Below, piece after piece: positions 33,552 through 53,735 of a DNA stretch of 64,000 bases (its first letter is position 1; every line of letters starts with the position of its first letter). The translations under genes were made by a program, and so were the position numbers. Below the pieces are notes generated by a model. That model made no database searches. It was not told the origin of the DNA and worked only from the letters and a program-made list of their open reading frames with translations. Origin of the DNA: an uncultured SAR86 cluster bacterium (GTDB lineage Bacteria; Pseudomonadota; Gammaproteobacteria; Magnimaribacterales; D2472); contig CACNUQ010000005.1 in NCBI GenBank assembly GCA_902623685.1, positions 44-64,043 on the forward strand, written 5' to 3'.

Positions 33552-35891
33552 ATGAACTACAACATACTCTACAAACAAATTTTACTAATTGTTTCTTTCC
33601 TTTTTTTCTGGACCTATGCATTTGCTCAAGAAAATGCTATTGAAGAAGTCTTTGTTACTGCAGAAAAAAGGTCAGAAAGCGTTCAAGATATTTCTCAGGC
33701 TGTAACAGCTATAAGTAGTGACGAAATTGAGTCTAAAAACATAACCTCCTTTGTTGATTTAAGTGCGATTGTGCCTGGAGTGACAGTCGCAAAAAATGAA
33801 GGCTACAAAACTGTTATCTCAATTAGAGGTGTTGGAAACGAAACAAACCAAAACGCAATTGCTGCGCCATCCGTTGCTTTTCATATGGATGGTATTTTTA
33901 TCGCATCTCCGTTTTCCCTGCAAACAGATTTCATTGATGTAGATAGAATTGAGGTTCTTCGAGGACCGCAAGGTACGCTTTTTGGTCAAAACTCAACTGG
34001 TGGAGTTATTAATGTTGTAAGCAAGAAGCCTTCCATGGAAGGCTATTCTGGAAAATCAGACATTACTTTCGGTAATTATGGGCTAACAAAATTTCGATCT
34101 TCCAATAATTTTGTTTTAAGCGATTCAACTGCTGCAAGATTTTCAATCTCCACGACTGATAGAGATGGATTTAGCGATAATTTAGTTACAGGACAGGACT
34201 TAGATGATGATAGCAATATTAGCTTACGCGCTGATTTCCTTATTGATCTTGGCGACAACTCCTCCCTGAGATTTTTTGGTCAATACTTTGATGTTGATAG
34301 AAATGGCTCAGCAATGAAAGGCATCGATGATCCTACACCTAATCCAAGAGATTTAAGGCAAGACTCAGTATCAAATCATGAATTAACCTCTTCTGTTTTT
34401 GCGGCGATCTATGAAAATGATCTTGGTTTCGCAAATCTTAAGATAATGGCAAGTGTTCAAGAGGATGATATTTCAGTTACTAGAGATAATGATCGTCATA
34501 ATTATGGTGATCTAATGATTACGATACCTGGTTTTCCAGCCGATGCGACATATCAAAGGGCGGAATTTCGTCCAGAAACATCTCTTGTAGATACAACAAC
34601 TTTTGAAATAAATCTAGTATCTAATGAACCCGCAATGAATGGGAAGCTCGATTGGACTATTGGTGCTTTTTATATGGAGCATGAAATAGAAAATCATATT
34701 GTCGGCTACCTAGATGACGATAGAAATGGTGAGATTCAATATATTTGTGGTGAATCATATGCCAATAGTGATTATTGTTATCCACTTGATTCACCTCTGC
34801 CATGGTTTTTCTTTGAGTTTGATTTTGTTTCTGATGCATATCCAACAAGGGAGTCATATTCTATATACGGTGAAACATCTTATTCTCTATCAGATCAAGT
34901 TCGTTTTATAAGTGGGCTTCGTTATATTGAGGACGAAGTTGAAAGTTGCGTTAAGAATTTTTTTACCACAGTTTGTGACAATCTTTTTGGAAGTTCAGAA
35001 GAGACAACAGGAAAAGTTGCTCTAGAATATGACGTAGACGACGACACGATGGTCTACGCATCTTTCACCTCAGGATCTAAACCTGGCGGCACAAATTTAA
35101 CATATGGATATACAACACAAGCTGAACTTAATGCTGCCTTTTTATTCACTTCACCATTAGTTGATCCATTGGTTTTTAGAACCTTTGAAGCAGAGGCTGT
35201 GGATTCAATGGAATTTGGTTTAAAAACTGATTTATATGATGGCAGAGCTAGAGCAAACATAGCAATTTTTTCTTATGATTATGAAAACCTTCAATTCCAG
35301 GCAACTGATCCTGATCCATATCGAGGTGGTGTTGCCAATATTCCTGAGTCAGAAATGTCTGGTGTAGAAATCGAGTTTACCGGTTTAGTTTCAGATCAAT
35401 TAACTTTTGATATGAATCTAGCTTTTCTTGATTCAGAAGTATCTTCAGATTATGAAGCCTTAGACAACGTCACAGCATATCAATATTTTTGGGGTGAGGA
35501 AGACTTAAGGCTCGGTCTAAGAACAAATATAAAAGGAAACGAGCTTGCTAAAACCCCAGAATTTACTGCCGATGTTTCTTTGAAGTATGAGACTGTTATG
35601 TCATCAGGCACTCTTTTCACGGGAATTTTACAATATGTCAAAAGAGGTGAGTTTCAACAGAGAGTAAATAATAATCCATTAGTTGATTCTATTGATGCCT
35701 ACGATATCTTAAATTTAACTGCTAGCTTTGATTTTGTTGGAGATAAATGGGGCCTCGATTTAATGATTTTAAATGCTTCTGATGAAGATGGAGTTAACTC
35801 AAGCATGACTGATGTTTTTGGTGTTGCTGCTACAGGCATAGAGTTGATACCACCCAGGCAAATCATGGCTCGATTAAGCATGAATTATTGA
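33552..35891 (+). CDS. TonB-dependent outer-membrane receptor
   Basis: Signal peptide, plug domain (IEEVFVTAEKRSESVQDISQAV, IEVLRGPQGTLFGQNSTGGVINV), and a long beta-barrel ending in an aromatic residue. Confidence 0.9.
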   Translation: MNYNILYKQILLIVSFLFFWTYAFAQENAIEEVFVTAEKRSESVQDISQAVTAISSDEIESKNITSFVDLSAIVPGVTVAKNEGYKTVISIRGVGNETNQNAIAAPSVAFHMDGIFIASPFSLQTDFIDVDRIEVLRGPQGTLFGQNSTGGVINVVSKKPSMEGYSGKSDITFGNYGLTKFRSSNNFVLSDSTAARFSISTTDRDGFSDNLVTGQDLDDDSNISLRADFLIDLGDNSSLRFFGQYFDVDRNGSAMKGIDDPTPNPRDLRQDSVSNHELTSSVFAAIYENDLGFANLKIMASVQEDDISVTRDNDRHNYGDLMITIPGFPADATYQRAEFRPETSLVDTTTFEINLVSNEPAMNGKLDWTIGAFYMEHEIENHIVGYLDDDRNGEIQYICGESYANSDYCYPLDSPLPWFFFEFDFVSDAYPTRESYSIYGETSYSLSDQVRFISGLRYIEDEVESCVKNFFTTVCDNLFGSSEETTGKVALEYDVDDDTMVYASFTSGSKPGGTNLTYGYTTQAELNAAFLFTSPLVDPLVFRTFEAEAVDSMEFGLKTDLYDGRARANIAIFSYDYENLQFQATDPDPYRGGVANIPESEMSGVEIEFTGLVSDQLTFDMNLAFLDSEVSSDYEALDNVTAYQYFWGEEDLRLGLRTNIKGNELAKTPEFTADVSLKYETVMSSGTLFTGILQYVKRGEFQQRVNNNPLVDSIDAYDILNLTASFDFVGDKWGLDLMILNASDEDGVNSSMTDVFGVAATGIELIPPRQIMARLSMNY

Positions 35892-35948
35892 TTTAATTTA
35901 TTAAAACTTTAATCTCATGATCAAATTTTAAATTTGATATAATCCAAC

Positions 35949-36518
35949 ATGGATAAATTATTCATACAACCAGCAGAATTGCTGGAAGACTCTTTTAAAC
36001 TAGCTTGGCAAGTATATGAAGGCGGATATCGACCCAACTATATTATTGGAGTATGGAGAGGAGGCTCTCCAATAGGAATCGCAGTACAAGAATTTCTCAA
36101 TATATTAAAAGTGCCTTCCGATCATATTGCAATTAGAACCTCTCACTATAAAGGCATTGGACAAACTCATGACAGCATTCAAGTTTTTGGTTTAAATTAC
36201 ATCATAAAAAAGGTCGTGGCCGAAGATTCTGTTTTAATTGTCGATGATGTACACGACACTGGTCTATCAATTCAACAAATAATATCTGATCTTAAAACTG
36301 CTTGTAAAAGAAATACTCCTGAAATTAAAGTCGCAACAACTTTTTTTAAACCCTCAAAGAATAAGACAGATTCAAAACCTGATTTTTATATACATGAAAC
36401 CGACAAATGGCTTATTTTTCCTCATGAGCTTGAGGGACTGTCTTTTGATGAAATTTCCTCAAATAAACCAGCCTCAAAGGACTTTATAAAAAAATTAAAA
36501 CCTTTTATAGATAAATAA
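35949..36518 (+). CDS. Purine phosphoribosyltransferase-family protein
   Basis: PRPP-binding motif VLIVDDVHDTGLS. 189 aa. It lies between the receptor and guaA. Confidence 0.7.
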   Translation: MDKLFIQPAELLEDSFKLAWQVYEGGYRPNYIIGVWRGGSPIGIAVQEFLNILKVPSDHIAIRTSHYKGIGQTHDSIQVFGLNYIIKKVVAEDSVLIVDDVHDTGLSIQQIISDLKTACKRNTPEIKVATTFFKPSKNKTDSKPDFYIHETDKWLIFPHELEGLSFDEISSNKPASKDFIKKLKPFIDK

Positions 36519-36571
36519 AGATTTTTAAAAGTTTAATTTATAATATTTACTAAATTAATCAGATATTATTA

Positions 36572-38155
36572 ATGACCGATTCTGGCAATCTCTCTTTAGA
36601 TCAAAAAAATATTGATACGATTTTAGTATTAGACTTCGGTTCTCAATATACTCAACTTATTGCAAGAAGAGTAAGAGATTTTAATGTGTATTCAGTGATT
36701 CTTCCTTGGGATGTTTCTCTGGAAAAAATTAAAATCTTAAATCCAAAAGGAGTAATCCTTTCTGGTGGTCCTGAATCAGTTACCAAATCTAATACACCAA
36801 GAATTCCTGAAATAATATTTGAATTAAATATCCCAATTTTAGGTATTTGCTATGGAATGCAAACACTAGCAGAGCAATTTGGTGGACAGGTTTCCTCTTC
36901 AACTATAAAAGAATTTGGGCACGCCCAAATAACCTTAGAACAAACTTCACAGCTTTTTGATGGCTTTGGTTCCGGCACCCTTATCGATGTTTGGATGAGT
37001 CATGGTGACCATGTTTCAACTCTTCCTGACGAATTTAATCTAATTGCCTCCACTTCTTCAGCACCTGTGGCAGCTATGGAGCACATTGAAAAACCTATCT
37101 ATGCTTTGCAGTTTCATCCAGAGGTAACCCATACTGATCAAGGAAAAGCTATATTAGAGAATTTTGTATTCAAGATATGTGAATCTACTCCTCAATGGAG
37201 AATGGAGGATCTTATTGAACATAGAATTCAAGAAATCAAAGATAAAGTTGGTGATCAAAGAGTTTTATTGGGCCTGTCTGGCGGAGTTGATTCATCAGTA
37301 ACGGCAATTTTGTTGGATAAAGCTATTGGAAAAAATCTGATATGTGTATTTGTCGATAATGGATTACTTCGTAAAAATGAAGCAAAGGATGTTGAAAGTT
37401 TATTCAAAGAGAAAATGAATTTGAATCTTGTTGTAGTTGATGCAAAAAAGATTTTCTATAGGCATCTTAAAGGTATTACAGAGCCTGAGCAAAAAAGAAA
37501 AGTTATAGGAAGGACATTTATAGATATATTTGATAATGAAGCGGCTAAATTTAAGGATGAAATTAAATACTTAGCTCAGGGAACGATTTATCCAGATGTA
37601 ATTGAATCCTCAGACTCTGAGTCAAAAGAGGCGCGGGTAATTAAATCTCATCATAATGTTGGTGGATTACCTGAAGATATGAAAATGGAGCTTATTGAGC
37701 CATTAAGGGATTTGTTTAAAGATGAGGTAAGGAAAATGGGGGCTAAACTGGGACTTCCCTCAGAAATGCTTAATCGTCATCCTTTTCCAGGACCTGGATT
37801 AGGCGTAAGAATTTTAGGTGAAATTTGCAAAGACAAAGTTACTACTTTGCAAAATGCAGATGCGATTTTTATCGAAGAGCTTATTAAGGCTAATTTGTAC
37901 GATCAAGTAAGTCAGGCATTTTGTGCTTATCTCCCCATAAAATCTGTTGGAGTAGTTGGGGACGAAAGAAGATATGCAGATGTAATAGCTATTAGGGCAG
38001 TTGAAACAGTAGATTTTATGACTGCTGATTGGGCTAAGCTCCCTCATGATTTTTTAGCAGATGTTTCAAATCGTATTGTTAATGAGTTAGAAAACATTAG
38101 TAGGGTTGTTTATGATATTTCAAGTAAACCACCAGCCACCATTGAGTGGGAGTAA
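36572..38155 (+). CDS. guaA: GMP synthase (glutamine-hydrolysing)
   Basis: GATase domain ([15 protein letters not shown]), ATP-PPase P-loop ([11 protein letters not shown]) and C-terminal dimerisation domain ending in KPPATIEWE. Confidence 0.97.
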
Positions 38156-38256
38156 ATAAGAATAAATTAGTTCTAATTGAAAGATTTTATTTAAAAAGTT
38201 AACCGATTAAAGCAATGTTTGATAACATAAAGTAAGAGCTTTTAAGGTGATATATT

Positions 38257-39249
38257 TTGCTAGTTAATGAAGATATAAAGTTAGATTATTCTGATGTCCT
38301 AATAAGACCTAAAAGATCTACAATGAGTTCTAGAGGAGAAGTAAATCTTGAAAGAACACACACTTTCCTCTGGAGTAAAAAAAAATGGACTGGGATTCCT
38401 ATTATGTCGGCCAACATGGACACAGTAGGAACTCCTGCAATGCATAATGTATTATCTAAATATAATTTAGTTACATGCCCAGCAAGGCATTATCTTAAAA
38501 AAAATCCAGAAAAATTTAAAAAAAGACAGTCAAATATTTGCTGGCTTGGTGGAATTGATGATATTTCTAAATTGTCAAAAACCTCAGGTGGCTTCATAGG
38601 ACTTGATGTTGCAAATGGATATACTATTAAATTTGTTGATGCTGTAAAAAAATTAAGGAAAAAGTGTCCAAATGCTACTATTGTTGCTGGGAATGTAGTT
38701 ACTGCTGATATGACGCAAGAGTTAATCCTTGCTGGTGCCGATATAGTAAAGGTTGGTATTGGTCCTGGCTCTGTCTGCACAACAAGAATCAAAACTGGAA
38801 TTGGCTATCCCCAATTAAGCGCCGTGATTGAATGTGCAGATGCAGCGCATGGTCTCGATGCACATATTATTGCTGATGGTGGTTGCACTAGTTCTGGAGA
38901 TATTGTTAAAGCATTTGCTGGCGGTGCCGATTTTGTGATGATAGGTGGAATGCTAGCTGGACACGATGAATGCAAGGGTAAGGTTGAGGATGGATTTATG
39001 AAATTCTATGGCATGGCTTCTGAATCTGCTATGAATAAGCACGGCAATCATAATTCCTATAGAGGCACAGAGGGTAAAACAGTTGTAGTAAAATATCGAG
39101 GAAAGGCAGATGATACAGTAAAAGATATTTTAAGTGGAATTCGATCTGCATGTACCTATGTTGGAGCGAATAAACTTAAAACACTGTCTAAATGCACAAC
39201 TTTTGTAAGAGTAAATAATACACATAACAAAATTTTTGGGGAAGAATAG
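38257..39249 (+). CDS. guaC: GMP reductase
   Basis: Collinear with E. coli GuaC as I recall it ([78 protein letters not shown]). TTG start preceded by AAGGTGA. Confidence 0.93.
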
Positions 39250-39277
39250 TTTCTAATTTTTTCTTACAATTAAGTGA

Positions 39278-39487
39278 CCATAAGTTGTTGGAGATAAAAG
39301 GAGACATATGGATGTGAGGGTAATCAGGTCAGTTTAAACAGTAGATTTTTTGACTGCAACTTGGGCAAGGCTTCTATATAATTTTTTAGCACATGTTTCA
39401 AATCGTATAGTTAATGAGCTTGAAAATGTAAGTAGAGTGGTCTATGACATTTCAAGTAAACCTCCAGCTATAATAGAGTGGGAATAA
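39278..39487 (+). pseudogene. guaA: Truncated, decayed copy of the guaA 3' end
   Basis: It aligns to guaA 37935-38155. Over the last 156 nt it is gap-free, at about 80% identity by hand count. It ends in the same peptide ([16 protein letters not shown]). It has an in-frame TAA at 39335-39337 where guaA has GAA. Further 5' there are indels, and nothing upstream resembles guaA. Confidence 0.85.
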
Positions 39488-39499
39488 AGTTAAATAATT

Positions 39500-40195
39500 A
39501 TGAATAAATCTATTTTGAGGAGATTTTTATCACTAATTTTAGAAAAAACATATAATTTTATAGATAATATTCACTCTTTTAGAATTAGAAAATTTTATAA
39601 AGATAAGAATATTGACTGCGTGATTGATGTTGGCTCACACAAAGGGGAGTTTATTAATTCAATTTGTGAGGATCATATTCCAATCTTTTCATTTGAACCT
39701 CAAATGTCTGTAAGACATGAGTTGATGAAAAATACTCAAGGAAAAAATGTTTTGGAGTATTTTGATTATGCCCTATCATCATATTCTGGTTTTACTGACC
39801 TTCATATCAGTCATCTAACATCTACTTCTTCAACCCTTGCTCCAGACGAGCAAAGAAGATGGATAAGGTTTAAGAAATTTTTATTGGGAGGGAGTCTTAT
39901 AGCTAAAACTGTTAATGTAAATGTAGAAAAGCTAGATAATATTCTGTTAACAAAATTGAAAAGTTTCAATTCTATTTTACTGAAGATTGATGTAGAGGGT
40001 GCCGAGAGCGATGTTTTGATAGGAGCTAAAAATATTATATGCAACCAAAATATTAAATTTATTCAAATCGAAATTAGTTCATCCAATAAATACAAAAAAG
40101 CATTGGACATTCTCAATAAAAATGGCTTTATAGAATCTAAAAAATTTCTCTTTCCTTTATTAAATTTTAGTGATTTTATTTTTGTAAAAAAATAA
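39500..40195 (+). CDS. FkbM-family SAM-dependent methyltransferase
   Basis: The motif I region VIDVGSHKGEF and a later KIDVEGAE are typical of FkbM-family methyltransferases. Confidence 0.7.
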   Translation: MNKSILRRFLSLILEKTYNFIDNIHSFRIRKFYKDKNIDCVIDVGSHKGEFINSICEDHIPIFSFEPQMSVRHELMKNTQGKNVLEYFDYALSSYSGFTDLHISHLTSTSSTLAPDEQRRWIRFKKFLLGGSLIAKTVNVNVEKLDNILLTKLKSFNSILLKIDVEGAESDVLIGAKNIICNQNIKFIQIEISSSNKYKKALDILNKNGFIESKKFLFPLLNFSDFIFVKK

Positions 40196-40263
40196 ATTTC
40201 TATATTGATAATAAATATTTCTTATAAAGCAAATGTATCTCTTTTATTTTATTATGGTCTAAT

Positions 40264-41748
40264 ATGAATATATTCTCAGAAGAAAAGATAAATAGTTTTG
40301 ATACCTTGCATTTAAATTCCAAAATTAATGTTCCATTAGTTGTTGACTTAGATGGAACGCTAGTCCTTACTGATACGCTTCATGAATTAGCAATTAAATT
40401 TTTAATAAAAAATCCATTTCTAAATCTGCCAATCATGATTGGTTGGTTATTTAAAGGAAAAGCACATTTTAAGCATAATATATCTCAGCAAATAGAAGTA
40501 AATGCTGCGTCACTGCCCTATAATACAACATTTTTAAAATGGGCAAATTCTCAAAGAGAGAATGGAAGAAAGATTGTATTATGCTCAGCGGCGAATGAAA
40601 GAATTGCCAAAAAAGTTGCTGAATATACTCAAATATTTGATGAGGTAATTTCAAGCACACAATCAGAAAATCTCTCAGGTAAAAATAAAGCATTAATCTT
40701 AGAAGAGAAATTTAGCGATACCGGTTATATATATGCCGGAAATTCATTTGATGATATTCCTGTATGGGATAAAGCCATTGAGACAATTATTGTAAATGCC
40801 TCAAATAAACTCGAGAAGATTGTGAAGAAAACATATGATCAGAATTTATTTTTTTCAACTAATGTAAAAAAAATATCTATTTGGCTAAAACCACTGAGGC
40901 TTCATCAATGGACAAAAAATTTATTAATATTTCTTCCATTGATTGCTGCCCACCAGCAATATAATTTTGAAAATATTTCACTCCTTTTAGCTTCATTTAT
41001 TTGCATCGGATTGTGCGCGTCTTCTACATACGTGTTCAATGACATAATAGATATAGATAGTGATCGATTGCATGCAAGGAAAAAAAATAGATCATTTGCC
41101 TCTGGTCAGATTCCCGTAAAGCTTTCCTTATTGATGATGCTACTAATGCCTCTCTCAATAATCTTCGCTTCAATGATCGGGGAAAACTTTATGATGATGA
41201 TATTGTTATATACTCTTCTAACTCTATCTTATTCACTTTTTTTAAAAATCTTTGCAATAATTGACTGTATCGTTTTAGCCGCTTTGTATACTATTAGAAT
41301 TATTGCTGGGGCTGTAGTAATTGATAATGTTCCTTCATTTTGGTTGATTGCTTTTTCAACTTTGTTTTTTTTCTCATTAGCTTTCCTTAAGAGATATTCA
41401 GAATTGTTAAGTGCTAGGGATTTAGGAGAAAACATTATTCATGGCAGAGGATATTTAAGTTCAGATTCTCCACTTATTTTATCGCTTGGGATTTCGTCAG
41501 CTCTTGGTTCAGTAATTGTGATGATGCTTTATCTGAATAGTCCAGAAATTTTGCAACTGTATAATTCTCCTCAAATAGTATGGTTTACTATTCCGATATT
41601 ACTTTTTTGGACTAGTTATATTTGGCTTCAAGCTAATAGAGGTAACATGCATGATGACCCAGTTATTTTTGCAATAAAAGATAGAGTGAGTATTTTATCT
41701 GCAATTTGCTTTTTTGTTTGCATTATTTTGGGCGCAAGAGGTTTTTAA
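40264..41748 (+). CDS. Fusion of an N-terminal HAD-type phosphatase with a C-terminal UbiA-family prenyl-phosphate phosphoribosyltransferase (Rv3806c-like)
   Basis: HAD motifs: VVDLDGTL (DxDGT), VLCSAAN, GKNK and GNSFDDIP. From about residue 205 there is a polytopic UbiA domain: LRLHQWTKNLLIFLPL, and the Asp-rich motif NDIIDIDSDRLHARKKNRSFASGQI. Confidence 0.7.
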   Translation: MNIFSEEKINSFDTLHLNSKINVPLVVDLDGTLVLTDTLHELAIKFLIKNPFLNLPIMIGWLFKGKAHFKHNISQQIEVNAASLPYNTTFLKWANSQRENGRKIVLCSAANERIAKKVAEYTQIFDEVISSTQSENLSGKNKALILEEKFSDTGYIYAGNSFDDIPVWDKAIETIIVNASNKLEKIVKKTYDQNLFFSTNVKKISIWLKPLRLHQWTKNLLIFLPLIAAHQQYNFENISLLLASFICIGLCASSTYVFNDIIDIDSDRLHARKKNRSFASGQIPVKLSLLMMLLMPLSIIFASMIGENFMMMILLYTLLTLSYSLFLKIFAIIDCIVLAALYTIRIIAGAVVIDNVPSFWLIAFSTLFFFSLAFLKRYSELLSARDLGENIIHGRGYLSSDSPLILSLGISSALGSVIVMMLYLNSPEILQLYNSPQIVWFTIPILLFWTSYIWLQANRGNMHDDPVIFAIKDRVSILSAICFFVCIILGARGF

Positions 41749-41753
41749 CAATT

Positions 41754-43058
41754 ATGCAGCTAAAAAAAAATTCCTGGGGAAATATATCCTCACCGAATCA
41801 TCAATTTAAAGATCTAGATTCTAAGGATGTCGCCCAGAATACTATTTCCAATCATTCAAATGGGATAGTTTATGGGATGGGTAGAAGCTATGGTGATGTA
41901 TGTCTTAATCAAGATGGACTTCTTTGGAAAAGTAAAAAACTAAATAGATTAATTTCTTTTGATGAAAAGTTAGGAATTTTAGAATGCGAATCTGGGATGA
42001 CTCTTAAATCAATTCAAGATTTAGTCATTCCTAAAGGATGGATGTTACCAGTCTCACCTGGAACCCAATTTGTGACTGTTGGAGGAGCTATTGCTAATGA
42101 TATTCATGGAAAAAATCATCATCAAGCTGGTACATTTGGAAATCACATTACTGAGATTTTACTTTTGAGATCTGATTCAGATCCAATTTTATGCGGTCCA
42201 AATAAAAATAAGAATTGGTTTAAGGCAACAATTGGAGGAATAGGATTAACTGGAATTATTTTCAGTTGCAAAATTCAACTAAAAAAAATTAATGGAAGCT
42301 GGCTGGAGGCTGAATCAATTCCTTTTCAGGGCTTAGATAAATTTTTTGAGCTTACAAAAGAATCAGATTCAGATTGGGAGTACACTGCGGCATGGATAGA
42401 TTGCCTTTATAAAAAAGAGATTAGGGGCATTTTTGAAAGAGGAAAACACGTAATAAAAGATAAAAAATTTAAAAACTTTCAAATTAGTTTTCCTTTTACT
42501 CCTCCATTTTCATTGGTTAATAAATTAACAATTTCAATTTTTAACCCGATTTATTTTTTTCTTAAATCTTTTTTTTCTGGCAAGCGAACTATTCATTATT
42601 CAAAGTTTCTTCATCCATTAGATAACATTCATAACTGGAATAGAATGTATGGAACCCGAGGATTTTATCAATTTCAATGTGTTATGCCTCACGAATCTAG
42701 CAAAGAAACCCTAAAAAAAATGTTAGATTTAATTACAGAATTGAAGATGGGATCTTTTTTGGCAGTTCTAAAAAGTTTTTCTAATTTTGAACCAGTTGGA
42801 TTATTAAGTTTTTCTGAGCCAGGGATTACATTTGCTATGGATTTTCCTAATAAAGGAAATAAAACCGAGTTGTTATTTCATGAATTAGAAAAAATAGTAA
42901 TCCAATCAGGTGGGAAGATATATTTGGCTAAAGATATGCTTATGAGCAAAGAAAGTTTTGAAGCCTCGTATAAATCATTAGATTCATTTGCAACTTTCAG
43001 AGATCCCAATATAAGCTCTCAAATGTCTAAAAGGTTGTTTGGAGATTCAATTGGATAA
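41754..43058 (+). CDS. FAD-dependent prenylphosphoryl-ribose 2'-oxidase (DprE1-like)
   Basis: Collinear with M. tuberculosis DprE1 as I recall it. GMGRSYGD vs [38 protein letters not shown] vs [66 protein letters not shown], and GGKIYLAKD. The ATG at 41754 is preferred over the TTG at 41706. Confidence 0.8.
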   Translation: [434 protein letters not shown]

Positions 43059-43800
43059 TAGAGAAACTAAAGTAATTTTGGGAGGGACTTCAACCATTGC
43101 CAAAAATGTAGCAAAAATATGGCTAAAACAGCGGCCCATAAAGATAATTTTAATCGGAAGAAATTCTCAAAAATTACAGGCTGTATTTTCAGAATTAAAT
43201 AATATAAATCCTTTATCAGAAATTAATTGTGCAGAATTGAAATTTGATGATATTGATGCAGGAAGAAAATTAATTCATGAAATTGTTAAGTCTAATAATG
43301 TTTCAAAAGTACTTATTGCATTCGGTACCTTACCAAATCAGTTAGAGTGCGAAGAAAATTCTATTCGTTTAAAAGACGCGTTATTTATTAATGGTGTTTT
43401 GCCAGTAATTTATGCTGATATATTTGCGTCAAAAATTAATTCTTCTTTACCCTCCACAATTGCCATTATAGGATCTGTTGCTGGGGACAGAGGCAGGAGA
43501 TCAAATTTTTTTTACGGATCAGCTAAAAGCATGATACATACATATGTAGAAGGCGCTAGGCACAAGTTTAAGGATTCTAATTTAAATTTGTGCATTATTA
43601 AGCCTGGGCCTACGCAAACTCCAATGACAGAATCATTAGGTTTAAGAATCAAGTTAGCAGATCCTAAAATAGTTTCTAGAGATATAGTTGATGGAATTGA
43701 AAAGAACAAATCTGAAATTTATACGCCTTCTAAATGGAAAATAATTATGTTTATTATAAAGAGCTTACCCGAATTTATTTTTCATAAACTTAATATTTAA
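43039..43800 (+). CDS. SDR-type prenylphospho-2'-keto-pentofuranose reductase (DprE2-like)
   Basis: ILGGTSTIA Rossmann motif, VLIAFG, GDRGRRSNFFYGSAK (Mtb DprE2: GERVRRANFVYGSTK), IIKPGPTQTPM, and a C-terminus ...FIFHKLNI (Mtb: ...SIFRKLPI). The start is uncertain: TTG at 43039 or 43051. Confidence 0.75.
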   Translation: MEIQLDNRETKVILGGTSTIAKNVAKIWLKQRPIKIILIGRNSQKLQAVFSELNNINPLSEINCAELKFDDIDAGRKLIHEIVKSNNVSKVLIAFGTLPNQLECEENSIRLKDALFINGVLPVIYADIFASKINSSLPSTIAIIGSVAGDRGRRSNFFYGSAKSMIHTYVEGARHKFKDSNLNLCIIKPGPTQTPMTESLGLRIKLADPKIVSRDIVDGIEKNKSEIYTPSKWKIIMFIIKSLPEFIFHKLNI

Positions 43801-43805
43801 ATTAA

Positions 43806-44750
43806 ATGTTAAACCATAATTCTAAGATTGTAATTTGTGGAGGGGCAGGTTTAGTTGGTCAAAACCTTGTTCATATGCTTTTTAACTCTGGATATAAAAA
43901 TATAATCATCATAGATAAGCATCATAAAAACCTAGAAATCCTTAAGAATTTTTTCCCCATAGTTAATACAATTAATGCTGATCTATCTATTAGTGGAAAT
44001 TGGGAAAATTCATTTAAGGAAGCAAATGTAGTAATTATGCTTCAGGCCCAAATCGGCGGATTGAATTTTTTAGAATTTAAAAATAATAATTTAAATTCAA
44101 CACAAAATATTATAAAAAATTATAAAAAGTTTGAAGTTGATAGATTGATACATATTAGTTCATCTGCTATCAACTCGTCGGCTCGTGATTTTTACAGCCA
44201 AACAAAAAAATTACAAGAAAAGTTAGTTATTGATAGTAAGATAGATTGTGTAATTTTAAGACCTACTCTAATGTTTGGTTGGTTTGACCGTAAGCATTTT
44301 GGTTGGTTATCAAGATTTATGAAAAAATCTCCTATTTTTCCAATACCTGGCAATGGAAAATATATGAGGCAGCCTTTATACGCTAAAGATTTTTGTAAAA
44401 TAATTATTAGTTGTATGAAAGATAGCAAAATTAATGGAATTTATGATATTTCTGGGTTAGAAAAAATAAATTATATAGATATTATCATTCAAATTAGACG
44501 GGCTATAAAAAGTAATACTATTTTGATCAAAATACCATATAGACTATTCTATATCTTGTTAAGAGTTTGGAGTATTTTTGATAAAAATCCGCCATTTTCT
44601 GTCCAACAGCTTGAAGCTTTAGTCATAGATGAAGAATTTAAGATTATTGATTGGCCTAAAATCTTCAATGTTCAAAGTACTCCTTACGATAAAGCTATAA
44701 ACGAGACATTTACTAACACAACATTCAGCCATGTTGAACTAGATTTTTAG
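43806..44750 (+). CDS. NAD-dependent epimerase/dehydratase family protein
   Basis: Rossmann motif ICGGAGLVGQNL, and a YSQTK YxxxK motif. 314 aa. Confidence 0.65.
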   Translation: MLNHNSKIVICGGAGLVGQNLVHMLFNSGYKNIIIIDKHHKNLEILKNFFPIVNTINADLSISGNWENSFKEANVVIMLQAQIGGLNFLEFKNNNLNSTQNIIKNYKKFEVDRLIHISSSAINSSARDFYSQTKKLQEKLVIDSKIDCVILRPTLMFGWFDRKHFGWLSRFMKKSPIFPIPGNGKYMRQPLYAKDFCKIIISCMKDSKINGIYDISGLEKINYIDIIIQIRRAIKSNTILIKIPYRLFYILLRVWSIFDKNPPFSVQQLEALVIDEEFKIIDWPKIFNVQSTPYDKAINETFTNTTFSHVELDF

Positions 44751-44752
44751 CT

Positions 44753-46042
44753 ATGACAAAAAAAATTGCTGTTTTAGGAGCAGGTCCAATGGGCTTAGCT
44801 GCAGCCTATGAGTTAGTAAAAAATGGCCATAAACCAATTATTTTTGAGGCTGACGATAGGGTGGGTGGAATGACTGCCTGTTTTAATTTCAGCGGAACAG
44901 AAATAGAACGTTTTTACCATTTTCATTGTACTGGTGATTCCGAGCTCATTTCTTTGCTGGATGAACTTCAGTTATCCTCGGAAATGAAATGGAGAGAGAC
45001 TAAAATGGGATTTTGGTATGAGGACGAAATTCATGAATGGGGAAATCCAATTGCATTATTGAAGTTTAGGGGCTTGGGTTTTTTTGACAAGTTAAGATAT
45101 GGCATTTTTGCTTTTTTTTCCTCTAAGAGAAAGAATTGGAAAAGTTTAGATAAACTAGATGCAAAAAGCTGGATAAAAAAATGGGTTGGTACGGAAGTTT
45201 TTAATATTACGTGGAGAAGCTTATTTGAATTAAAGTTCTATCATTATTCTTCAAATATTTCTGCTGCTTGGATTTGGGCAAGAATCAGACGATTAGGGAC
45301 TTCAAGGTTTAATATTTTCAAAGAAAAGCTAGGTTATATTGAGGGAGGCTCAAAAACTCTTTTAAATGCTCTAACAAACTCTATTACAAGCCTTGGCGGG
45401 CAGATAAGACTAAATTCACCTGTTTCAAAAGTCTTGATTGAAAATGAAAAAATTTTAGGTATAGAAATAGAGTCTGAAGTTGAATTTTTTGATACAGTCA
45501 TTTCTACGGTCCCAACACCATTTGTTTCAAAGTTAATTCCCGATCTTTCAAAAAAAATTATAAAACAATTTTCTGCAATTAATAACATTGGAGTTATTTG
45601 TGTAATTATAAAAATTAAAAAATCTGTTTCTTCAAATTTTTGGCTAAATATAAATGATCCTGACATGGATATTCCAGGACTTGTAGAGTATTCAAATTTA
45701 ATGCCAATGAATGAGAATATTGTATATGTCCCATTTTATCTACCTGGAGAGCATCCTAAATTTTCTGATCCAGATGAAATTTTTATTACTAAGGTAAAGA
45801 AATATATTATGAAAATTAATAAATCAATTAATGAGGAGGATTTTATAGATGCTAAAGCAAGTAGATATAGATTTGCCCAGCCAATATGTGAGCCAGGTTT
45901 TTTAGAAAAAATACCAAGTTTAGATCTTGGAGTAAAAGGACTTTTAGTTGCAGATACTTGCTACTACTATCCTGAAGATCGAGGAATCTCTGAAAGTGTA
46001 AATTTTGGGAAAAGTTTGGCAAAAAAAATTCTGCATGATTAA
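44753..46042 (+). CDS. FAD/NAD(P)-binding oxidoreductase (amine oxidase / phytoene desaturase-like fold)
   Basis: N-terminal dinucleotide fold IAVLGAGPMGLAAAYEL...IFEADDRVGGM. 429 aa. Confidence 0.65.
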   Translation: MTKKIAVLGAGPMGLAAAYELVKNGHKPIIFEADDRVGGMTACFNFSGTEIERFYHFHCTGDSELISLLDELQLSSEMKWRETKMGFWYEDEIHEWGNPIALLKFRGLGFFDKLRYGIFAFFSSKRKNWKSLDKLDAKSWIKKWVGTEVFNITWRSLFELKFYHYSSNISAAWIWARIRRLGTSRFNIFKEKLGYIEGGSKTLLNALTNSITSLGGQIRLNSPVSKVLIENEKILGIEIESEVEFFDTVISTVPTPFVSKLIPDLSKKIIKQFSAINNIGVICVIIKIKKSVSSNFWLNINDPDMDIPGLVEYSNLMPMNENIVYVPFYLPGEHPKFSDPDEIFITKVKKYIMKINKSINEEDFIDAKASRYRFAQPICEPGFLEKIPSLDLGVKGLLVADTCYYYPEDRGISESVNFGKSLAKKILHD

Positions 46043-46436
46043 TTCATTTTTTTCCAAGCAATTTATTTTATTCTTGATAGTAGGTTCTTCTTGCGCAGCT
46101 GCCAATATTCTTGCAAGAGTTATCTTTGACATACGATTTAGCTATAGTACCTCAGTTGTATTGGCTTTTTGTGTTGGTTTCTCTCTAGCATTTTTTTTAA
46201 ACTACAAATATGTTTTCCCAAAGACCACAAAAAACATTTTCCAACAAATTAAGAATTTTTTTTTAATAAATATATTTTTTCTACCAATTGTATGGTTTTC
46301 ATCAATAGCTCTCCAAGAAGTTTTTATAAACTTTACTTTTATTTCATATCCTAATTTAGTTGCACATATTTTTGCAGTTTCTATTCCTGTATTAGCATCA
46401 TTTTTAATATATAAGTTTTCAATTTTTAAAGAGTAA
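46035..46436 (+). CDS. GtrA-family small membrane protein
   Basis: About 133 aa with four predicted TM helices. N-terminal FSKQFILFLIVGSSCAAANILARVIF and C-terminal YKFSIFK fit GtrA. The ATG at 46035 overlaps the upstream stop. Confidence 0.65.
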   Translation: MINSFFSKQFILFLIVGSSCAAANILARVIFDIRFSYSTSVVLAFCVGFSLAFFLNYKYVFPKTTKNIFQQIKNFFLINIFFLPIVWFSSIALQEVFINFTFISYPNLVAHIFAVSIPVLASFLIYKFSIFKE

Positions 46437-46533
46437 ATATCTTATTTAATTTTCATCAAAGATAACTTATAAATAATTAATATAAAAAAATTAAATCGAT
46501 ATATAATCCATTTTTCTAAAAATATAATTTTGA

Positions 46534-48096
46534 ATGCAAGCAAACACTAAGAGACATCTTTTCAATAGTATAGGATTCATTTTAATGGTTTCTTTAATTG
46601 TTTTAAGGTATCCAAATTTTGTTTTCAAACCGAGATTTTGGGCTGAAGAAGCAGTATATTTTGAAATTTTTTATAGTCTTGATCATTGGTGGCAATCGTT
46701 TAATCTTTTAATTTATCCAGCATACTATCTTTTTTTAAGTAGGCTGGGTCCAAGCTTAGCCACAGTGTTTCCTATTGAATATGCTCCATTAGTTACTTCA
46801 TTTGTTGGATTGATTGTACTTTCCATTCCCTTGTTAATAATTTTTTATACCGACTCAATTTATTGGAGCACGATAAAAAGTAAGCTGTTAATTTCATCCC
46901 TTTATATTTTTTCATCCACAACTGGAGAGGTATGGATGACTAGTACAAATGTTGGTTTTATAGTGCCTGTTTTTATTTTTTTAATATTAATAGATGAAAA
47001 TTTAATCTCAAAAGCAAAGAGATTTTTTTATAATGCTCTTTTGTTTATTGGGGCTATCTCAAGTCCAATTGCTATGCTAATGGCACCATTTTTCTACATA
47101 AAATATTTTATATCCAGAGAAGTAACTAGTAGAAATTATTGCATAATTTTATTTTTTGCAGCCCTAATTCAAATGGCTCATTATCTAACTGCCAGTCACT
47201 TTGGTATGGTTGCAGAGGACAGATTAGATATTGGTTCATGGGATATTACGACTAGTCTTGGAAATCTTCTTGCTTACAATATTATTTTCCCCTTGTTTGG
47301 ATACTTTATTTCTTTACTTTTTAGAGAGTTCTTTGCTTTGTTTGCCATCGGATTAGATTTAGAGGGTGTTTTAGAATCCATAAATACATCATCGGCTTTA
47401 TCTCCAAATATTCTGTTTCTAATTGAATTTTTATCTAAGATAGCTTTTCCAGTCTTATGCATTTTACTTCTAACAGTAATTTATGTTGTGTTTTTGTTAA
47501 TGAGTAGAGCTACATTAAATAAAAAAATATTTGTAATAAGTTTATTTATTTATCTTAGTTTGGTTCTAAATGGCCTATCTCTCGGGGCACTTGGAGGATT
47601 TCGATATTCCTTAATTACAGCTTTTATTCTTCTATTTTATTTACATTCAATGCTTATAGATTATCCTGACAATAAAAATTACATAGCAAAGATTTTATTA
47701 TCATGCTCACTGATTGTAGGTGTTTTAGAGTATTATCCTAGATTACATAACTATGTTCCTGACACATTTGTTGCCGAAGAGATTCAATGGCCAAATTGGA
47801 ATGATGAGCTGAAAATTTGGCAAGAAAATAATACCTATCTTCCAAAGGTTTGGCCGTACATTAAAAATAAAGATTCAATTTATCCGGCAAGATTAAAAAA
47901 TGAGGCAAATATTTTTTGCATTGATTTAAATCATCCAAAAAATTGGGAAAGAATGGGCTTTAGATACTTTAGTTCTTCATTTAATGAAATGCTAAGTGTT
48001 GGAATATCCAATGACATCAACAAACAAATTGTGCATTACGATAATTGCAGGGGAAATATTATAATCAATGGAGAGCAAGAATCATTAAGGCAGTAA
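46534..48096 (+). CDS. Polytopic membrane protein, candidate GT-C-type lipid-sugar-dependent glycosyltransferase
   Basis: 520 aa with about 11-13 hydrophobic helices. There is an acidic motif (FWAEEAVYFE) right after TM1 and a roughly 110-aa hydrophilic C-terminal domain. I recognised no family. The call rests on topology and context next to GtrA and the DprE1/E2 homologues. Confidence 0.4.
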   Translation: MQANTKRHLFNSIGFILMVSLIVLRYPNFVFKPRFWAEEAVYFEIFYSLDHWWQSFNLLIYPAYYLFLSRLGPSLATVFPIEYAPLVTSFVGLIVLSIPLLIIFYTDSIYWSTIKSKLLISSLYIFSSTTGEVWMTSTNVGFIVPVFIFLILIDENLISKAKRFFYNALLFIGAISSPIAMLMAPFFYIKYFISREVTSRNYCIILFFAALIQMAHYLTASHFGMVAEDRLDIGSWDITTSLGNLLAYNIIFPLFGYFISLLFREFFALFAIGLDLEGVLESINTSSALSPNILFLIEFLSKIAFPVLCILLLTVIYVVFLLMSRATLNKKIFVISLFIYLSLVLNGLSLGALGGFRYSLITAFILLFYLHSMLIDYPDNKNYIAKILLSCSLIVGVLEYYPRLHNYVPDTFVAEEIQWPNWNDELKIWQENNTYLPKVWPYIKNKDSIYPARLKNEANIFCIDLNHPKNWERMGFRYFSSSFNEMLSVGISNDINKQIVHYDNCRGNIIINGEQESLRQ

Positions 48097-48167
48097 AGAA
48101 ATATAATTTACTTCCCAAATATATTGCTTATAATATTTCATTTTTTAAAACACTATAAAAAACTATT

Positions 48168-48833
48168 ATGAGTGACAATAAAAATATCAGAGATATAGGC
48201 ACTTTTTTTAACGGTTATGCTGCCGAATTTTCAAGCATTTACTTAGAAGATGAAAGACCTAGAAGTTTGTTTAACAAAGTAATGGACAGACTTTTTAGAA
48301 AGGATATAGAAACACGTCTTGTTGATAGCCTCAATCATATGAGAAAAGATTCAATTAAAACGGTTCTAGACATTGGATGTGGCCCTGGCCACTTGGTTGT
48401 TAAATTACTAGAGCTTAATAAAGATGTTACAGCCCTAGACATAGCCCCGAATATGTTAGAGATTACTCAGATGAGAGTCGATTCAATGAAATTAGAGTCA
48501 AATTTTAAGACTATCTTAGCTGATTATTCAGAACATGAATTTGATGAAAAATTTGACGCAATATCAGTCATGGGCTTTTTTGACTATGTTGAAGACCCTG
48601 TCAGTGTTCTAAAAAAATTATTAAATGATGCTTCAAAAGAAATATATATTTCAATACCAGGCGATAAAGGCTTTTTAGCTTGGCAGCGAAAAGTAAGATA
48701 TAAGAGAAGAAATTGCCCTCTTTATTTATATTCAAAAGAGTCTTTAGAGCAGTATCTAAAAGATGCAGGTTGTTTAGAGATGACAGAGATTGTCGATACT
48801 GAAAGAGGCTATTATCTTATTATTAGGAAGTAA
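48168..48833 (+). CDS. Class I SAM-dependent methyltransferase
   Basis: Motif I VLDIGCGPGH, and motif post-I ALDIAPNM. Confidence 0.75.
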   Translation: MSDNKNIRDIGTFFNGYAAEFSSIYLEDERPRSLFNKVMDRLFRKDIETRLVDSLNHMRKDSIKTVLDIGCGPGHLVVKLLELNKDVTALDIAPNMLEITQMRVDSMKLESNFKTILADYSEHEFDEKFDAISVMGFFDYVEDPVSVLKKLLNDASKEIYISIPGDKGFLAWQRKVRYKRRNCPLYLYSKESLEQYLKDAGCLEMTEIVDTERGYYLIIRK

Positions 48834-48901
48834 TTCTGAATAAGATCCCGTTTTATTTTTCGATAGATCTAGAGGATTTCACTTTTGATCTTACTCGCAC
48901 T

Positions 48902-49699
48902 ATGGGTCTAAAACCAAAAGTAAATTTTGAGGCTCTTAAACTTGGATATAAGCTTATAAATGAGTTTTGTAATAATAAATTAGATTCAAAGAAAATCACA
49001 TTTTTTACAACCGGAACGGTCGCAGAAACATTTCCTGAATTATTGCAACAAATTGCCAGTGATGGTCATGAGATCGCATGTCATTATCACTATCATGACT
49101 TGATGTTTAAGCAGTCAAATGAAGAGATTGATCAGAATCTTGCTCTAGCAAAGAATGCAATATTTAAAGCTTGTGGAGAAGAGCCAAAAGGCTTTAGGGC
49201 GCCTGTTTTTTCAATTCCCAAAGACAGAACTGACATTTTTCAAGTAATTGAAAAACATTTTGATTATGATTCAAGTTTTGTCTTATATTTAAACAAATTT
49301 AATAAAACAGATTACTTTCAAAATTCACCTTTCACACTTGAGAAGCTTAAAGAATTTCCGATAGTACCAAAACCTTTTTTTAATAAAAAAATAAGTATTA
49401 AATCTGGAGGAACATTCTTGCGTCTATACACTAAAGAAATGATGAAAGAAGTCATGTTATTTAATCATGAGCAAGGCTTTATACCTTTGGTATATATGCA
49501 TCCTTACGACTATCTTCAAAATAAAGAGTTTTGGGTTCCACTATCAGACTTTTTTAAATCAAAAAAACTTTCTAATTTTATTAAGTATCCTAGACAACTT
49601 CAGTGGACAGGTTTAAGAAATAAGACTGTTTTTCCAAAGCTTGAATACATATTGGAGACATTTGAGCATCAAGGCCCAATGTCTCAGCTTATAAGTTGA
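48902..49699 (+). CDS. Polysaccharide deacetylase-family (NodB-fold) protein. The true start is possibly upstream at a non-ATG codon.
   Basis: TFFTTGTVAE, HEIACHYHYHD and GFRAPVFS resemble the deacetylase family. The in-frame sequence just upstream (48836-48901) encodes LNKIPFYFSIDLEDFTFDLTRT, which looks like the family's N-terminal Asp motif. Confidence 0.6.
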   Translation: MGLKPKVNFEALKLGYKLINEFCNNKLDSKKITFFTTGTVAETFPELLQQIASDGHEIACHYHYHDLMFKQSNEEIDQNLALAKNAIFKACGEEPKGFRAPVFSIPKDRTDIFQVIEKHFDYDSSFVLYLNKFNKTDYFQNSPFTLEKLKEFPIVPKPFFNKKISIKSGGTFLRLYTKEMMKEVMLFNHEQGFIPLVYMHPYDYLQNKEFWVPLSDFFKSKKLSNFIKYPRQLQWTGLRNKTVFPKLEYILETFEHQGPMSQLIS

Positions 49700-50811
49700 G
49701 TAAATCATCTATAGTTTTTATATGCGGTAATGGGGATACCCTTTATCGTTTTCGTCTTGAGTTGATTAAGCGCTTTTTAGAAAAAGATTTCATAGTCCAT
49801 ACTTTTGCACCCGAAATTCCTGATGACTTTCTGGCTGAGCTAAAAACTCTCGGTGTTATTTATCATAATATCTCCTTTAAAAGAAAGACTGTAAATATTT
49901 TTGATACCCTTATAAGTATTTTCGATATTACAAAAAAATTAAGAATAATTAAGCCTAATATTGTTTTTTCATATACTCATAAATCTGTGATCGTTGGATC
50001 AATATGCTCCTTTTTTGCAGGAAGACTAAGATCCATATCGTTAATCACAGGAACAGGGCATATATTTGATAATGATAATTTTGTTCAAAAAATTAAAAGA
50101 TTTGTTGGGATTTTAGGATTTAAGATATCTCTTTTTTTTAGTGAAATTGTTTTTTTTCAAAACCCTGACGATCTAGATTTGTTTTGCTCTCTCGGAATGA
50201 CAAATAAATCAAAGGCAAAATTATTAAATGGATCTGGAGTTGATCTAAAAAAGTTTTCACCCGTGCCTTTAGTAAACAATGCAAATTTTTTATGCATGTC
50301 TCGCCTTATAAAGTCAAAAGGTTTACTAGATTATGCTAAGGCAGCAAAAATAGTAAAAAATCTCTATCCCAGTGCTAGATTTCTCCTTTATGGTTTTCCT
50401 GATGACCATGAGGATTCACTAGATGAATCAGAAATAATTAATACTTGGAAAGATAAATATGGAGTAGAATATTTTGGTTTTACAAATGATCCAGTTGAAA
50501 CAATTTCTCAATGCAGTGTCTATGTTTTGCTATCTTATAATGAAGGAACTCCTAGAAGCGTTCTAGAAGCAATGTCAATGTCGAGACCAATCATCACCAC
50601 AGATGTTCCTGGATGTAGAGAAACTGTTGAAAACGGCAAAAATGGTTTCTTAGTAAATGTAAAAGACCCTCAAAGTGCAGCTGAAGCTATGATAAAACTT
50701 ATAGACTATGATTTGAGACTTGAAATGGGATCAAATTCAAGAAAGTTATGTGAAGAAAAATATGATGTGCACTTAGTAAATAATGAAATTTTTTCGACTC
50801 TAAAAATATAA
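49696..50811 (+). CDS. Glycosyltransferase family 4 (GT-B, Glycos_transf_1)
   Basis: The C-terminal EGTPRSVLEAMSMSRPIITTDVPGCRETVENGKNGFLV is the EX7E-type GT4 signature. TTG start overlaps the upstream stop. Confidence 0.85.
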   Translation: MSKSSIVFICGNGDTLYRFRLELIKRFLEKDFIVHTFAPEIPDDFLAELKTLGVIYHNISFKRKTVNIFDTLISIFDITKKLRIIKPNIVFSYTHKSVIVGSICSFFAGRLRSISLITGTGHIFDNDNFVQKIKRFVGILGFKISLFFSEIVFFQNPDDLDLFCSLGMTNKSKAKLLNGSGVDLKKFSPVPLVNNANFLCMSRLIKSKGLLDYAKAAKIVKNLYPSARFLLYGFPDDHEDSLDESEIINTWKDKYGVEYFGFTNDPVETISQCSVYVLLSYNEGTPRSVLEAMSMSRPIITTDVPGCRETVENGKNGFLVNVKDPQSAAEAMIKLIDYDLRLEMGSNSRKLCEEKYDVHLVNNEIFSTLKI

Positions 50812-50825
50812 CAAATATTTGTGAT

Positions 50826-53691: not shown

Positions 53692-53735
53692 AAATCATTA
53701 AAAAAAATTTGAAATTACTAGCAAGATAAAAATAA

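Follow-up and report, generated by a model that had tools for sequence, protein, structure and literature searches.

Why does a bacterial chromosome that possesses an intact guaA gene also carry a second, broken guaA end, placed exactly where a block of variable glycan genes begins? The question is raised by a stretch of 64,000 nucleotides (nt) from an uncultured SAR86 cluster bacterium (GenBank assembly GCA_902623685.1, contig CACNUQ010000005.1, positions 44 to 64,043 of the forward strand), which is referred to in its whole length as the window. In it guaA, which codes for the glutamine-hydrolysing GMP synthase, is followed by guaC, which codes for a GMP reductase-like protein, then by a decayed copy of the guaA 3′ end (the relic) and then by a strain-variable glycan island. 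The exchange of such islands in abundant uncultured ocean bacteria has mostly been deduced from gene content, and recognition by phages and grazers is directed mainly at them; at this locus the joint itself is readable. The displaced, non-functional guaA 3′ end probably now serves a replaceable glycan island as its left homology arm, with an origin in two steps: the decayed half of the relic that strains have in common would record one old rearrangement, and the island-specific half would record later replacements, decayed to different degrees. The locus would provide a concrete case in which an island is replaced through homologous recombination and the crossover lies some tens of bases away from it, and the decay of the tail offers a way to order island acquisitions in time.

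The guaA 3′ relic

Local alignment pairs the relic at 39283-39487 with guaA 37951-38155. The two copies run at a constant offset of 1332 nt without a gap, with 141 of 177 bases identical over 39311-39487 and 127 of 156 over the last 52 codons. The match lies far beyond chance, because it is found with E = 1.5e-19 by blastn within the window and with E = 5.5e-28 by tblastn with the GuaA C-terminus. Taken at this offset, the portion of the resident gene that is duplicated corresponds to 37934-38155 (plus strand). The codons that differ comprise 14 synonymous and 10 non-synonymous ones, the C-terminal peptide is identical to that of GuaA, and a GAA codon of guaA is replaced by TAA at 39335-39337. 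The stop codon of the relic ends at 39487 and is separated by a 12-nt gap from the ATG at 39500, the start of an FkbM-type methyltransferase gene. An earlier note, made from the letters of this DNA and its list of open reading frames (ORFs), had already described most of this: its count over the last 52 codons was reproduced exactly, its 14 synonymous codons among 24 differing ones came out the same on recounting, and the TAA, the common C-terminal peptide and the 12-nt distance were all seen again.

The 5′ part of the relic turned out differently from that description, which placed indels there, set the start at 39278 and reported a single TAA. The frame continues 5′ free of gaps (VVGDKRRHMDVRVIRSV*TVDF opposite its guaA counterpart), the +2 and -2 gaps of the local aligner cancelling each other, and it contains four in-frame stops, at 39254, 39275, 39281 and 39335. 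Homology is clear from 39284 and likely from 39266 (CAATTAAG, P-I/V-K), and the relic possibly starts right at the guaC stop codon (39247-39249), that is, from 39250, the exact start being uncertain because the first ~35 nt (39248-39282) are only 40-46% identical. Its length is therefore given as 222-238 nt, at about 80% identity to the resident guaA tail, and it covers just the last ~68-79 codons of guaA, without a start. Being truncated, and having disabling mutations and raised non-synonymous change in its proximal part, the segment is a pseudogene fragment.

Mosaic structure of the relic in four strain types

Relatives whose GuaA is 79-98% identical to that of the window occur in marine metagenomes and in single-cell and metagenome-assembled genomes, and the adjacency of guaA and guaC together with the relic was found in the window lineage only (the window, L081, L099, L102 in part, L106 and L114-L123). 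The same guaC|relic joint is present in four strain types: the window type; L081 (GCA_902578615.1), the closest genome, with a GuaA 98% identical, whose guaA-guaC-relic order is also seen in the Global Ocean Sampling contig L099; the TARA scaffold L114, whose GuaC is identical to that of the window; and L106. Up to the very edge of the relic, identity between strains stays at 92-100% in guaA and guaC, and guaC alone is 96-100% identical among window/L115, L081/L099, L114 and L106, which have four different arrangements downstream. At the level of sequence, the guaC|guaA-tail joint is shown to have had a single origin.

The relic behind this joint reads as a mosaic of an old, decayed proximal part common to the strains and a distal part specific to each island. 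Over the proximal part (39250-39352, plus strand) the window, L081 and L114 types are 91-95% identical (94-99% over 39284-39352), and the same substitutions, disabling or radical in effect (K, H, M, R, V, S), recur in all three. Over the distal part (39353-39487, plus strand), which consists of 44 codons and a stop, has no internal stop and looks in the window like a nearly intact allele, identity among the same types is only 64-75%, a divergence at least as large as that of guaA alleles from different species. Between the window and L081 the mismatches number 4 of 70 in the proximal part and 34 of 135 in the distal one (Fisher p = 5e-4). The switch in identity between relic types, from about 94% to 64-75% against both L081 and L114, falls at about 39340-39365 (plus strand), the putative crossover zone, which lies inside GTAGATTTTnTGACTGC, a block conserved across all guaA alleles examined. 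Of the relic types only that of the window has TAA at 39335, L081 and L114 carrying GAA. Against L106 the breakpoint lies at about 39250 instead, and the relic of that strain differs from the guaC stop onward (56-74%).

The distal versions pair with gene sets. That of the window precedes a set beginning with FkbM and UbiA; that of L081/L099 precedes a divergent nitroreductase followed by TylF, GtrA, an epimerase, UDP-glucose (UDPG) dehydrogenase and GT2; and that of L114 precedes a third island with Acyl_transf_3/SGNH acyltransferase, arylsulfotransferase, sulfotransferase and FkbM methyltransferases. In L106 the order is guaC, a very decayed full-length relic (403-629), an epimerase-like ORF of 215 amino acids (aa) at 631-1278, a short guaA tail (~1279-1340) and FkbM. 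This FkbM gene is 97% identical to that of the window and has the same 12-nt spacer before its start, and the decayed tail of ~65 nt that precedes it contains the same unusual GCTAnAATAGAG. The two relics of L106 suggest a serial accretion of modules, each one behind a guaA tail, and to find the same island behind two joints with different tail lengths is what would be expected if the donor island lay directly behind a working guaA.

Two contigs, L119 (from 1899) and L122 (from 1886), match the window at 100% identity as far as 39404-39417, beyond which they diverge, and L123 does so up to that same region inside the relic, where the contig ends. Either the relic contains further rearrangement joints at these places or the assembly graph broke at the guaA-tail repeat.

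Coding decay of the two parts

The proportion of non-synonymous sites that differ (pN) was computed against five functional guaA alleles, for the proximal part over 39284-39352 (23 codons) and for the distal part over 39353-39484 (44 codons). Functional alleles differ from one another by a pN of 0.015 in the proximal and 0.050 in the distal part. For the relics, the proximal values are similar (0.183 in the window, 0.197 in L081 and 0.176 in L114), and the distal ones are graded: 0.077 in the window (0.029 against L113), 0.108 in L081 and 0.222 in L114. By this measure all strains have an old proximal part; the distal part is old in L114 and young in the window, and that of L081 lies between the two. 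Against the individual functional alleles the distal part of the window has a pN of 0.029-0.106 and a ratio of non-synonymous to synonymous change (dN/dS) of 0.02-0.12; its differences from L113 number 1, 3 and 19 at codon positions 1, 2 and 3 (19 of 23 at the third), and it lies 3 aa from the GuaA tail of the P0101/L113 type.

Compared with the resident guaA tail, the relic as a whole has a proportion of differing synonymous sites (pS) of 0.58 and a dN/dS of 0.12, in keeping with the view of the earlier note that it did not arise by recent local duplication; and because its distal part departs from the resident tail by 20% (pS 0.60, dN/dS 0.09), recent gene conversion from the resident guaA and recent local duplication are both excluded. 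That note had further proposed that the fragment evolved as a functional guaA allele of another lineage, and evolution within a working guaA is supported for the distal 135 nt by their dN/dS of 0.02-0.12; the proximal part is heavily decayed, and a history of one allele for the whole relic gives way to a mosaic whose two parts differ in age and in their sharing among strains. The arrangement that it had reconstructed, guaA followed directly by the island and later separated from it by a full guaA and guaC, is too simple, because the same guaC|relic junction precedes three other arrangements. This junction is older than the present island, and the FkbM island seems to have come later, with a guaA tail of its own. 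The relic was to be considered an old and uninformative remnant if related genomes carried it in identical form with invariant DNA downstream; both the relic and what follows it vary between strains.

Proposed origin

The first step would start from an ancestor with the order PRT-guaA-(attB)-nitroreductase, like the empty site of a sister species described below. A segment composed of a guaA 3′ end, a spacer of ~100 nt and guaC would have been joined to the chromosome, with one end inside the guaA homology and the other at an illegitimate joint that fused the guaC stop to about codon 450-458 of guaA. In the mirror version of this step, a guaA tail with its downstream DNA would have been imported behind an existing guaA-guaC pair, with the same product. 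Either way guaA would remain intact, and a guaA tail of ~222-238 nt would be left behind guaC and would then decay, a product that is expected from homology-facilitated illegitimate recombination.

In the second step, glycan islands would have been replaced repeatedly by homologous recombination with donors in which the island lay directly behind guaA. The left crossover would fall inside the relic, in the conserved GTAGATTTTnTGACTGC block at about 39340-39365, and each import would overwrite the distal 135 nt with the guaA tail of the donor. For the window, the donor would have had a guaA stop, 12 nt and then FkbM, and because the distal tail of the window is almost intact, this FkbM island would have arrived relatively recently. 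Three observations support replacement of this kind: the relic is a mosaic, its tail varies together with the island, and its decay is graded. The relic itself would have no coding function, and the effect proposed for it is structural, in that one island could take the place of another while guaC is kept and the working guaA stays untouched. Both steps are inferred from sequence products.

Several points weigh against this two-step origin. Among the data searched, no genome was found in which guaA and guaC are adjacent without a relic, nor one in which a functional guaA is directly followed by the FkbM island; the contigs L108-L112, whose FkbM is 57% identical, have the same operon with no guaA, guaC or nitroreductase upstream and do not show the predicted donor arrangement. 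To account for the divergence of L106, either a breakpoint at the guaC stop must have arisen independently or the split must be much deeper. The pN values rest on counts over 23 and 44 codons, and, with a pS of 0.5-0.65 between all sampled alleles, synonymous sites have reached saturation, so that the distal tails are not assignable to a donor lineage; the nearest sampled allele (P0101/L113, the best protein match) has 83% DNA identity. For the direction of the first step either order would fit, given this saturation and a resident guaA without a foreign signal: its C-terminal 99 aa are 90-95% identical to those of relatives, compared with 85-87% for the whole protein, and no foreign 3′ segment was detectable in it against relatives, which gives no signal either way. 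The route of DNA uptake, natural competence included, is putative for this organism.

Alternative explanations

That the locus is a chimera, in which the repeated guaA tail led assembly to link a guaA-guaC contig with one from an island, is hardly credible. Short contigs do often stop or diverge within guaA, within the relic or just beyond either (the end of L101 lies 83 nt past the guaA stop, and L119, L122 and L123 no longer match the window from 39404-39417), but guaC-relic-FkbM is spanned at 99.7-99.9% identity by six contigs (L115, L116, L117, L118, L120 and L121) from other metagenome assemblies, TARA included, obtained from differing samples with differing assemblers; L115 and L100 are the same record, MDSW01147535.1, which is 99.83% identical to window 34475-44019, with 16 mismatches. 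The same joint recurs in three further strain types, and the relic, at only ~80% identity to the guaA tail, is too divergent for assembly collapse, so that the artefact against which the earlier note had advised a check is excluded. A local tandem or segmental duplication of the cell's own guaA end, with neutral decay and with drift as the source of the strain differences, would account for a gap-free copy in the same orientation 1.3 kb away and for the pseudogene-like decay of the proximal part (pN 0.18). It is nevertheless a decidedly unlikely origin: neutral decay of one copy would give a dN/dS of about 0.5, yet the distal part, 20% off the resident tail, shows 0.09 against it and 0.02-0.12 against other functional alleles; the divergence between relic types leaps from ~6% to 25-36% within the fragment, next to a guaC that is 96-100% identical; and a tandem event would have doubled guaC too. 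Even more improbable is that the relic has been kept for a function, be it as a small GMP_synt_C-like peptide or as a transcriptional or translational lead-in to the first island gene. The window does have an ORF of 45 aa (39350-39487), L081 one of 59 aa and L114 one of 57 aa, two of the three with precomputed GMP_synt_C matches, only 12-50 nt separate the relic stop from the next start codon, and no terminator is predicted between guaC and FkbM. However, the start, length and sequence of the ORF differ between strains, the versions of L114, L081 and L106 have many radical changes, further stops and no terminal EWE, the short L106 tail has no ORF at all, and promoter-like sites are not in excess, a scan of 37.9-39.7 kb for promoters and terminators having found none above shuffled expectation.

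The remaining explanation, unlikely too, is that the relic is an attR-type remnant of site-specific integration in the manner of GIsul2/PIME or e14/phage 21, left when an integrative element with its own guaA 3′ end completed guaA with that copy, displaced the original tail and then decayed to guaC. The address is certainly suitable, because attachment at the guaA 3′ end is proven (PMC9376610; bioRxiv 10.64898/2026.01.12.698999): as the earlier note had stated, it is used by GIsul2, whose 19-bp attB contains the 8-bp core GAGTGGGA (PMC9376610), and the PIME mobilizable elements use the guaA locus as well (bioRxiv 10.64898/2026.01.12.698999). This core is present in both window copies, in the working guaA at 38144-38151 and in the relic at 39476-39483 (both on the plus strand), and modules behind guaA in the sister species are bounded by 11-44-nt guaA-end repeats and accompanied by tandem motifs and a hairpin, one such element encoding a weak Phage_integrase match and a resolvase. 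In the window, however, the core is embedded in a repeat of 222-238 nt at ~80% identity, which is not a near-exact core of 8-44 nt. The 1.1 kb between the copies contain only a clade-native housekeeping gene and its promoter region, and no integrase, arm-type repeats or hairpin are present around either copy, where counterparts of the sister-species arm motifs AGTTACACGA, TGTTGTAAA and ATACAAACTT were also lacking. In addition, the relic starts directly at the guaC stop, and the change of its distal part together with the island is left unexplained. The core is mutated in the relics of L081, L114 and L106, no third copy was found in the window at the right end of the island, and no further guaA-tail copies or core repeats were found in the window, including before the nitroreductase at 59.4 kb. 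The absence of an integrase from the island, already remarked upon in the earlier note, agrees with Pfam scans of its ORFs of at least 110 aa (39.5-59.3 kb), which gave neither an integrase nor a transposase; three of these ORFs remained without a Pfam match even at E <= 1.

The two-step origin can be carried further into a tentative and rather doubtful generalization, in which the glycan islands of this clade of streamlined marine gammaproteobacteria might travel as units with the guaA tail of their donor as a portable homology handle. The dead tail behind guaC might then act as a dedicated docking site at which swaps of islands between different species spare the essential purine genes, tail decay would be a relative clock, and GAGTGGGA would be a possible second and harmless attachment site.

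Insertions behind guaA in a sister species

The sister species represented by contigs L082-L091, whose GuaA is 85% identical to that of the window and identical as a protein among its contigs, has different DNA right after guaA from one contig to another: a cupin gene, a czc/merC metal-efflux set, a beta-lactamase, an element with a probable integrase and a resolvase, a Wzz/UDP-glucose dehydrogenase polysaccharide cluster or a NeuB cluster. In L087 the site is empty, and the nitroreductase starts 26 nt past guaA. All the variants end at the same flank (nitroreductase, deaminase, Exo_endo_phos and S41 protease), and because their contents vary between constant flanks, the space between guaA and nitroreductase is a general hotspot. 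No long extra guaA fragment was found in these L082-L091 loci.

The last 11-44 nt of guaA (ATTGAGTGGGA...) recur downstream and bound modules in L083, L086 and L090. Two extra exact copies of ATTGAGTGGGA are present in L083 (18489-18499 and 19380-19390), and the repeats lie at 10386-10429 in L086 and at 4659-4678 in L090 (with the exact 11-mer); an imperfect version, ACGAGTGGGAATAG, was found in L084 at ~13250-13263, and further exact copies of ATTGAGTGGGA in L098 (984-994) and in the distant L006 (11883-11893). The repeats contain the GIsul2 core GAGTGGGA. Short tandem motifs specific to the module (AGTTACACGA, TGTTGTAAA, ATACAAACTT, TTTGACAAA) are found near both ends, a hairpin precedes the distal core and the original flank is kept before the nitroreductase, and the modules have the appearance of integrase-type insertions stacked on one another, several of which do not encode an integrase themselves.

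The element located directly behind guaA at L085 11735-15404 (also in L089 and L091) encodes a protein of 423 aa, a serine resolvase, an AAA ATPase and ORFs without a family. The 423-aa protein has a Phage_integrase match with E = 1.2e-4, which is below the Pfam cut-off. It was considered as a close relative of the GIsul2 integrase and rejected as such, its best tblastn match among 72,556 plasmids, none of which contained a close relative, reaching 28% over 38% of the protein.

guaC in the clade

GuaC homologues (84-99% identical overall) are common across the clade, where those outside the window lineage, at 84-90% identity, are not adjacent to guaA. By this distribution the gene is native to the clade and not foreign, and it is displaced here. 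It lies 3.1 kb downstream of guaA in L092, behind MIP, Nmad3, PRT and GST genes, and 9.5 kb downstream in L098, and it has other neighbours in L103-L105. The only upstream DNA that travels with it is a stretch of ~45 nt with a conserved TATAAAG-like box.

The lineage of L101, with a GuaA 87% identical, carries a Flavodoxin_2-like gene 1 nt past the guaA stop (2701-2784), and the same kind of gene stands behind guaC instead in L103 (1860-2465) and L104 (1289-1699). Its placement may be read as another sign of module shuffling between guaA and guaC ends.

As to the scope of these comparisons, a scan of contigs with generic GuaA peptide patterns gave, among the matches listed, only relatives of ~60% identity, unusable for synteny; a relic-specific 25-mer retrieved two contigs from the Joint Genome Institute (JGI) metagenomes, a small sample; and the contigs of the non-window strain types end inside their islands, the right crossover being outside their reach.

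Comparison with known systems

As a pseudogene scar the relic is of a familiar general type, and what is worth recording is its mosaic nature and the use of the guaA-end hotspot in two ways, by recombination in the window lineage and by integrase-type elements with the GIsul2 core in the sister species.

In structure alone, the locus fits the replacement of a 3′ end, guaA being intact with an alternative tail of ~230 nt located 1.1 kb downstream. The elements e14 and phage 21 reportedly integrate into the icd gene of Escherichia coli and leave a displaced icd 3′ fragment. As in those cases, the 3′ end of a housekeeping gene is doubled, the gene remains intact, and the second copy is promoterless and differs mostly at synonymous sites, because each copy evolved inside a working gene. 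With e14 and phage 21, however, the copies are separated by an entire prophage with a tyrosine integrase, and the crossover is fixed, whereas the window has only guaC and no recombinase between them, and its mosaic fragment varies according to the island beside it.

With GIsul2 and the PIME elements the locus shares the address, the extreme guaA 3′ end, and the presence of GAGTGGGA in both window copies, and in the sister species short core repeats bound the stacked modules. The difference lies in the repeat and in its equipment: GIsul2 has a 19-bp attB with an 8-bp core, and the window has a diverged coding repeat of 222-238 nt with no int, alpA, resG or att arms.

Illegitimate recombination facilitated by homology is said to have been described in the transformation of Acinetobacter and Streptococcus pneumoniae. 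Foreign DNA can be inserted by this route, with a short stretch of the recipient sequence left duplicated. The likeness consists in one homologous anchor (guaA) and one illegitimate joint (the guaC stop to the middle of guaA); unlike the Acinetobacter and S. pneumoniae cases, the event is here deduced from its product alone, in which no microhomology is identifiable.

Glycan islands of the replacement type include the O-antigen loci of E. coli, with hitch-hiking flanks such as gnd, hypervariable region 2 (HVR2) of SAR11 and the glycan islands of Alteromonas. The present island resembles them in its fixed locus between conserved genes, in gene sets that are wholly different while the flanks are 96-100% identical, in its content of glycosyltransferases and sugar-modifying enzymes, in its low G+C, in the lack of mobility genes and in a divergence that spills into the flank. 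A hypervariable region of SAR86 has been mentioned (PMC3358033). The window is set apart from the other replacement islands by its left flank, where the crossovers are absorbed not by a working core gene but by a pseudogene fragment; because this flank is a gene fragment, the direction of exchange and its relative age are readable from coding decay.

The glycan island and its surroundings

The working guaA occupies 36572-38155 (plus strand) and codes for 527 aa with Pfam GATase, NAD_synthase and GMP_synt_C domains. A spacer of 101 nt separates it from guaC (38257-39249, plus strand, TTG start, 330 aa, Pfam IMPDH/GMP reductase domain), which is the sole gene between both guaA tails. The island, of ~20 kb (39500-59340), was delimited by Pfam matches, by composition and by content that differs in L081, L114 and L106; its G+C is 27-33%, compared with 33-36% in the flanks. 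Its first gene is that of the FkbM-type methyltransferase (39500-40195), and Pfam matches across the island include, besides FkbM, UbiA/HAD, FAD_binding_4, SDR, epimerase, amine oxidase, GtrA and methyltransferases, as well as polysaccharide deacetylase, GT4, GT2 and VTC/DUF4956. The trio of UbiA, FAD oxidase and SDR may resemble the decaprenyl-phospho-arabinose pathway (DprE1/DprE2-like).

The operon that runs from FkbM through a UbiA/HAD fusion, FAD_binding_4, SDR, epimerase and amine oxidase to GtrA (window 39500-46436) recurs at L108 314-7261 with ~70% nt identity. L108 belongs to another lineage, in which this conserved FkbM-to-GtrA operon stands behind different upstream DNA. At the right end of the island (55813-59340) lie a VTC-domain protein, an ORF of 761 aa without a family and a DUF4956 protein on the minus strand; since the VTC/DUF4956 end does not obviously consist of glycan genes, the island may be composite.

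The first conserved gene of the right flank, by Pfam and by the synteny of relatives, is the nitroreductase at 59411-60064 (plus strand), after which come a dCMP-type deaminase, Exo_endo_phos and an S41 protease. The nitroreductase of L081 (12967-13623) is 63% identical to it in amino acids, compared with 73-77% for the sister-species copies; therefore this flanking gene itself appears to be swapped or paralogous in the L081/L099 type. Rfam and tRNA scans of the window gave just a tRNA-Pro at 6603, unrelated to the locus.

Two minor observations concern the working guaA in relatives. P0002, a GuaA relative of 95% identity, has an altered extreme C-terminus, SKPPVTVDEWE, exactly at the position of the attachment core. 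In the comparison with L102, a strain whose GuaA is 95% identical, the middle of guaA (window 36700-37500) is 84-91% identical and both sides are 92-100% identical, a dip that seems to indicate recombination mosaicism inside the working gene too.

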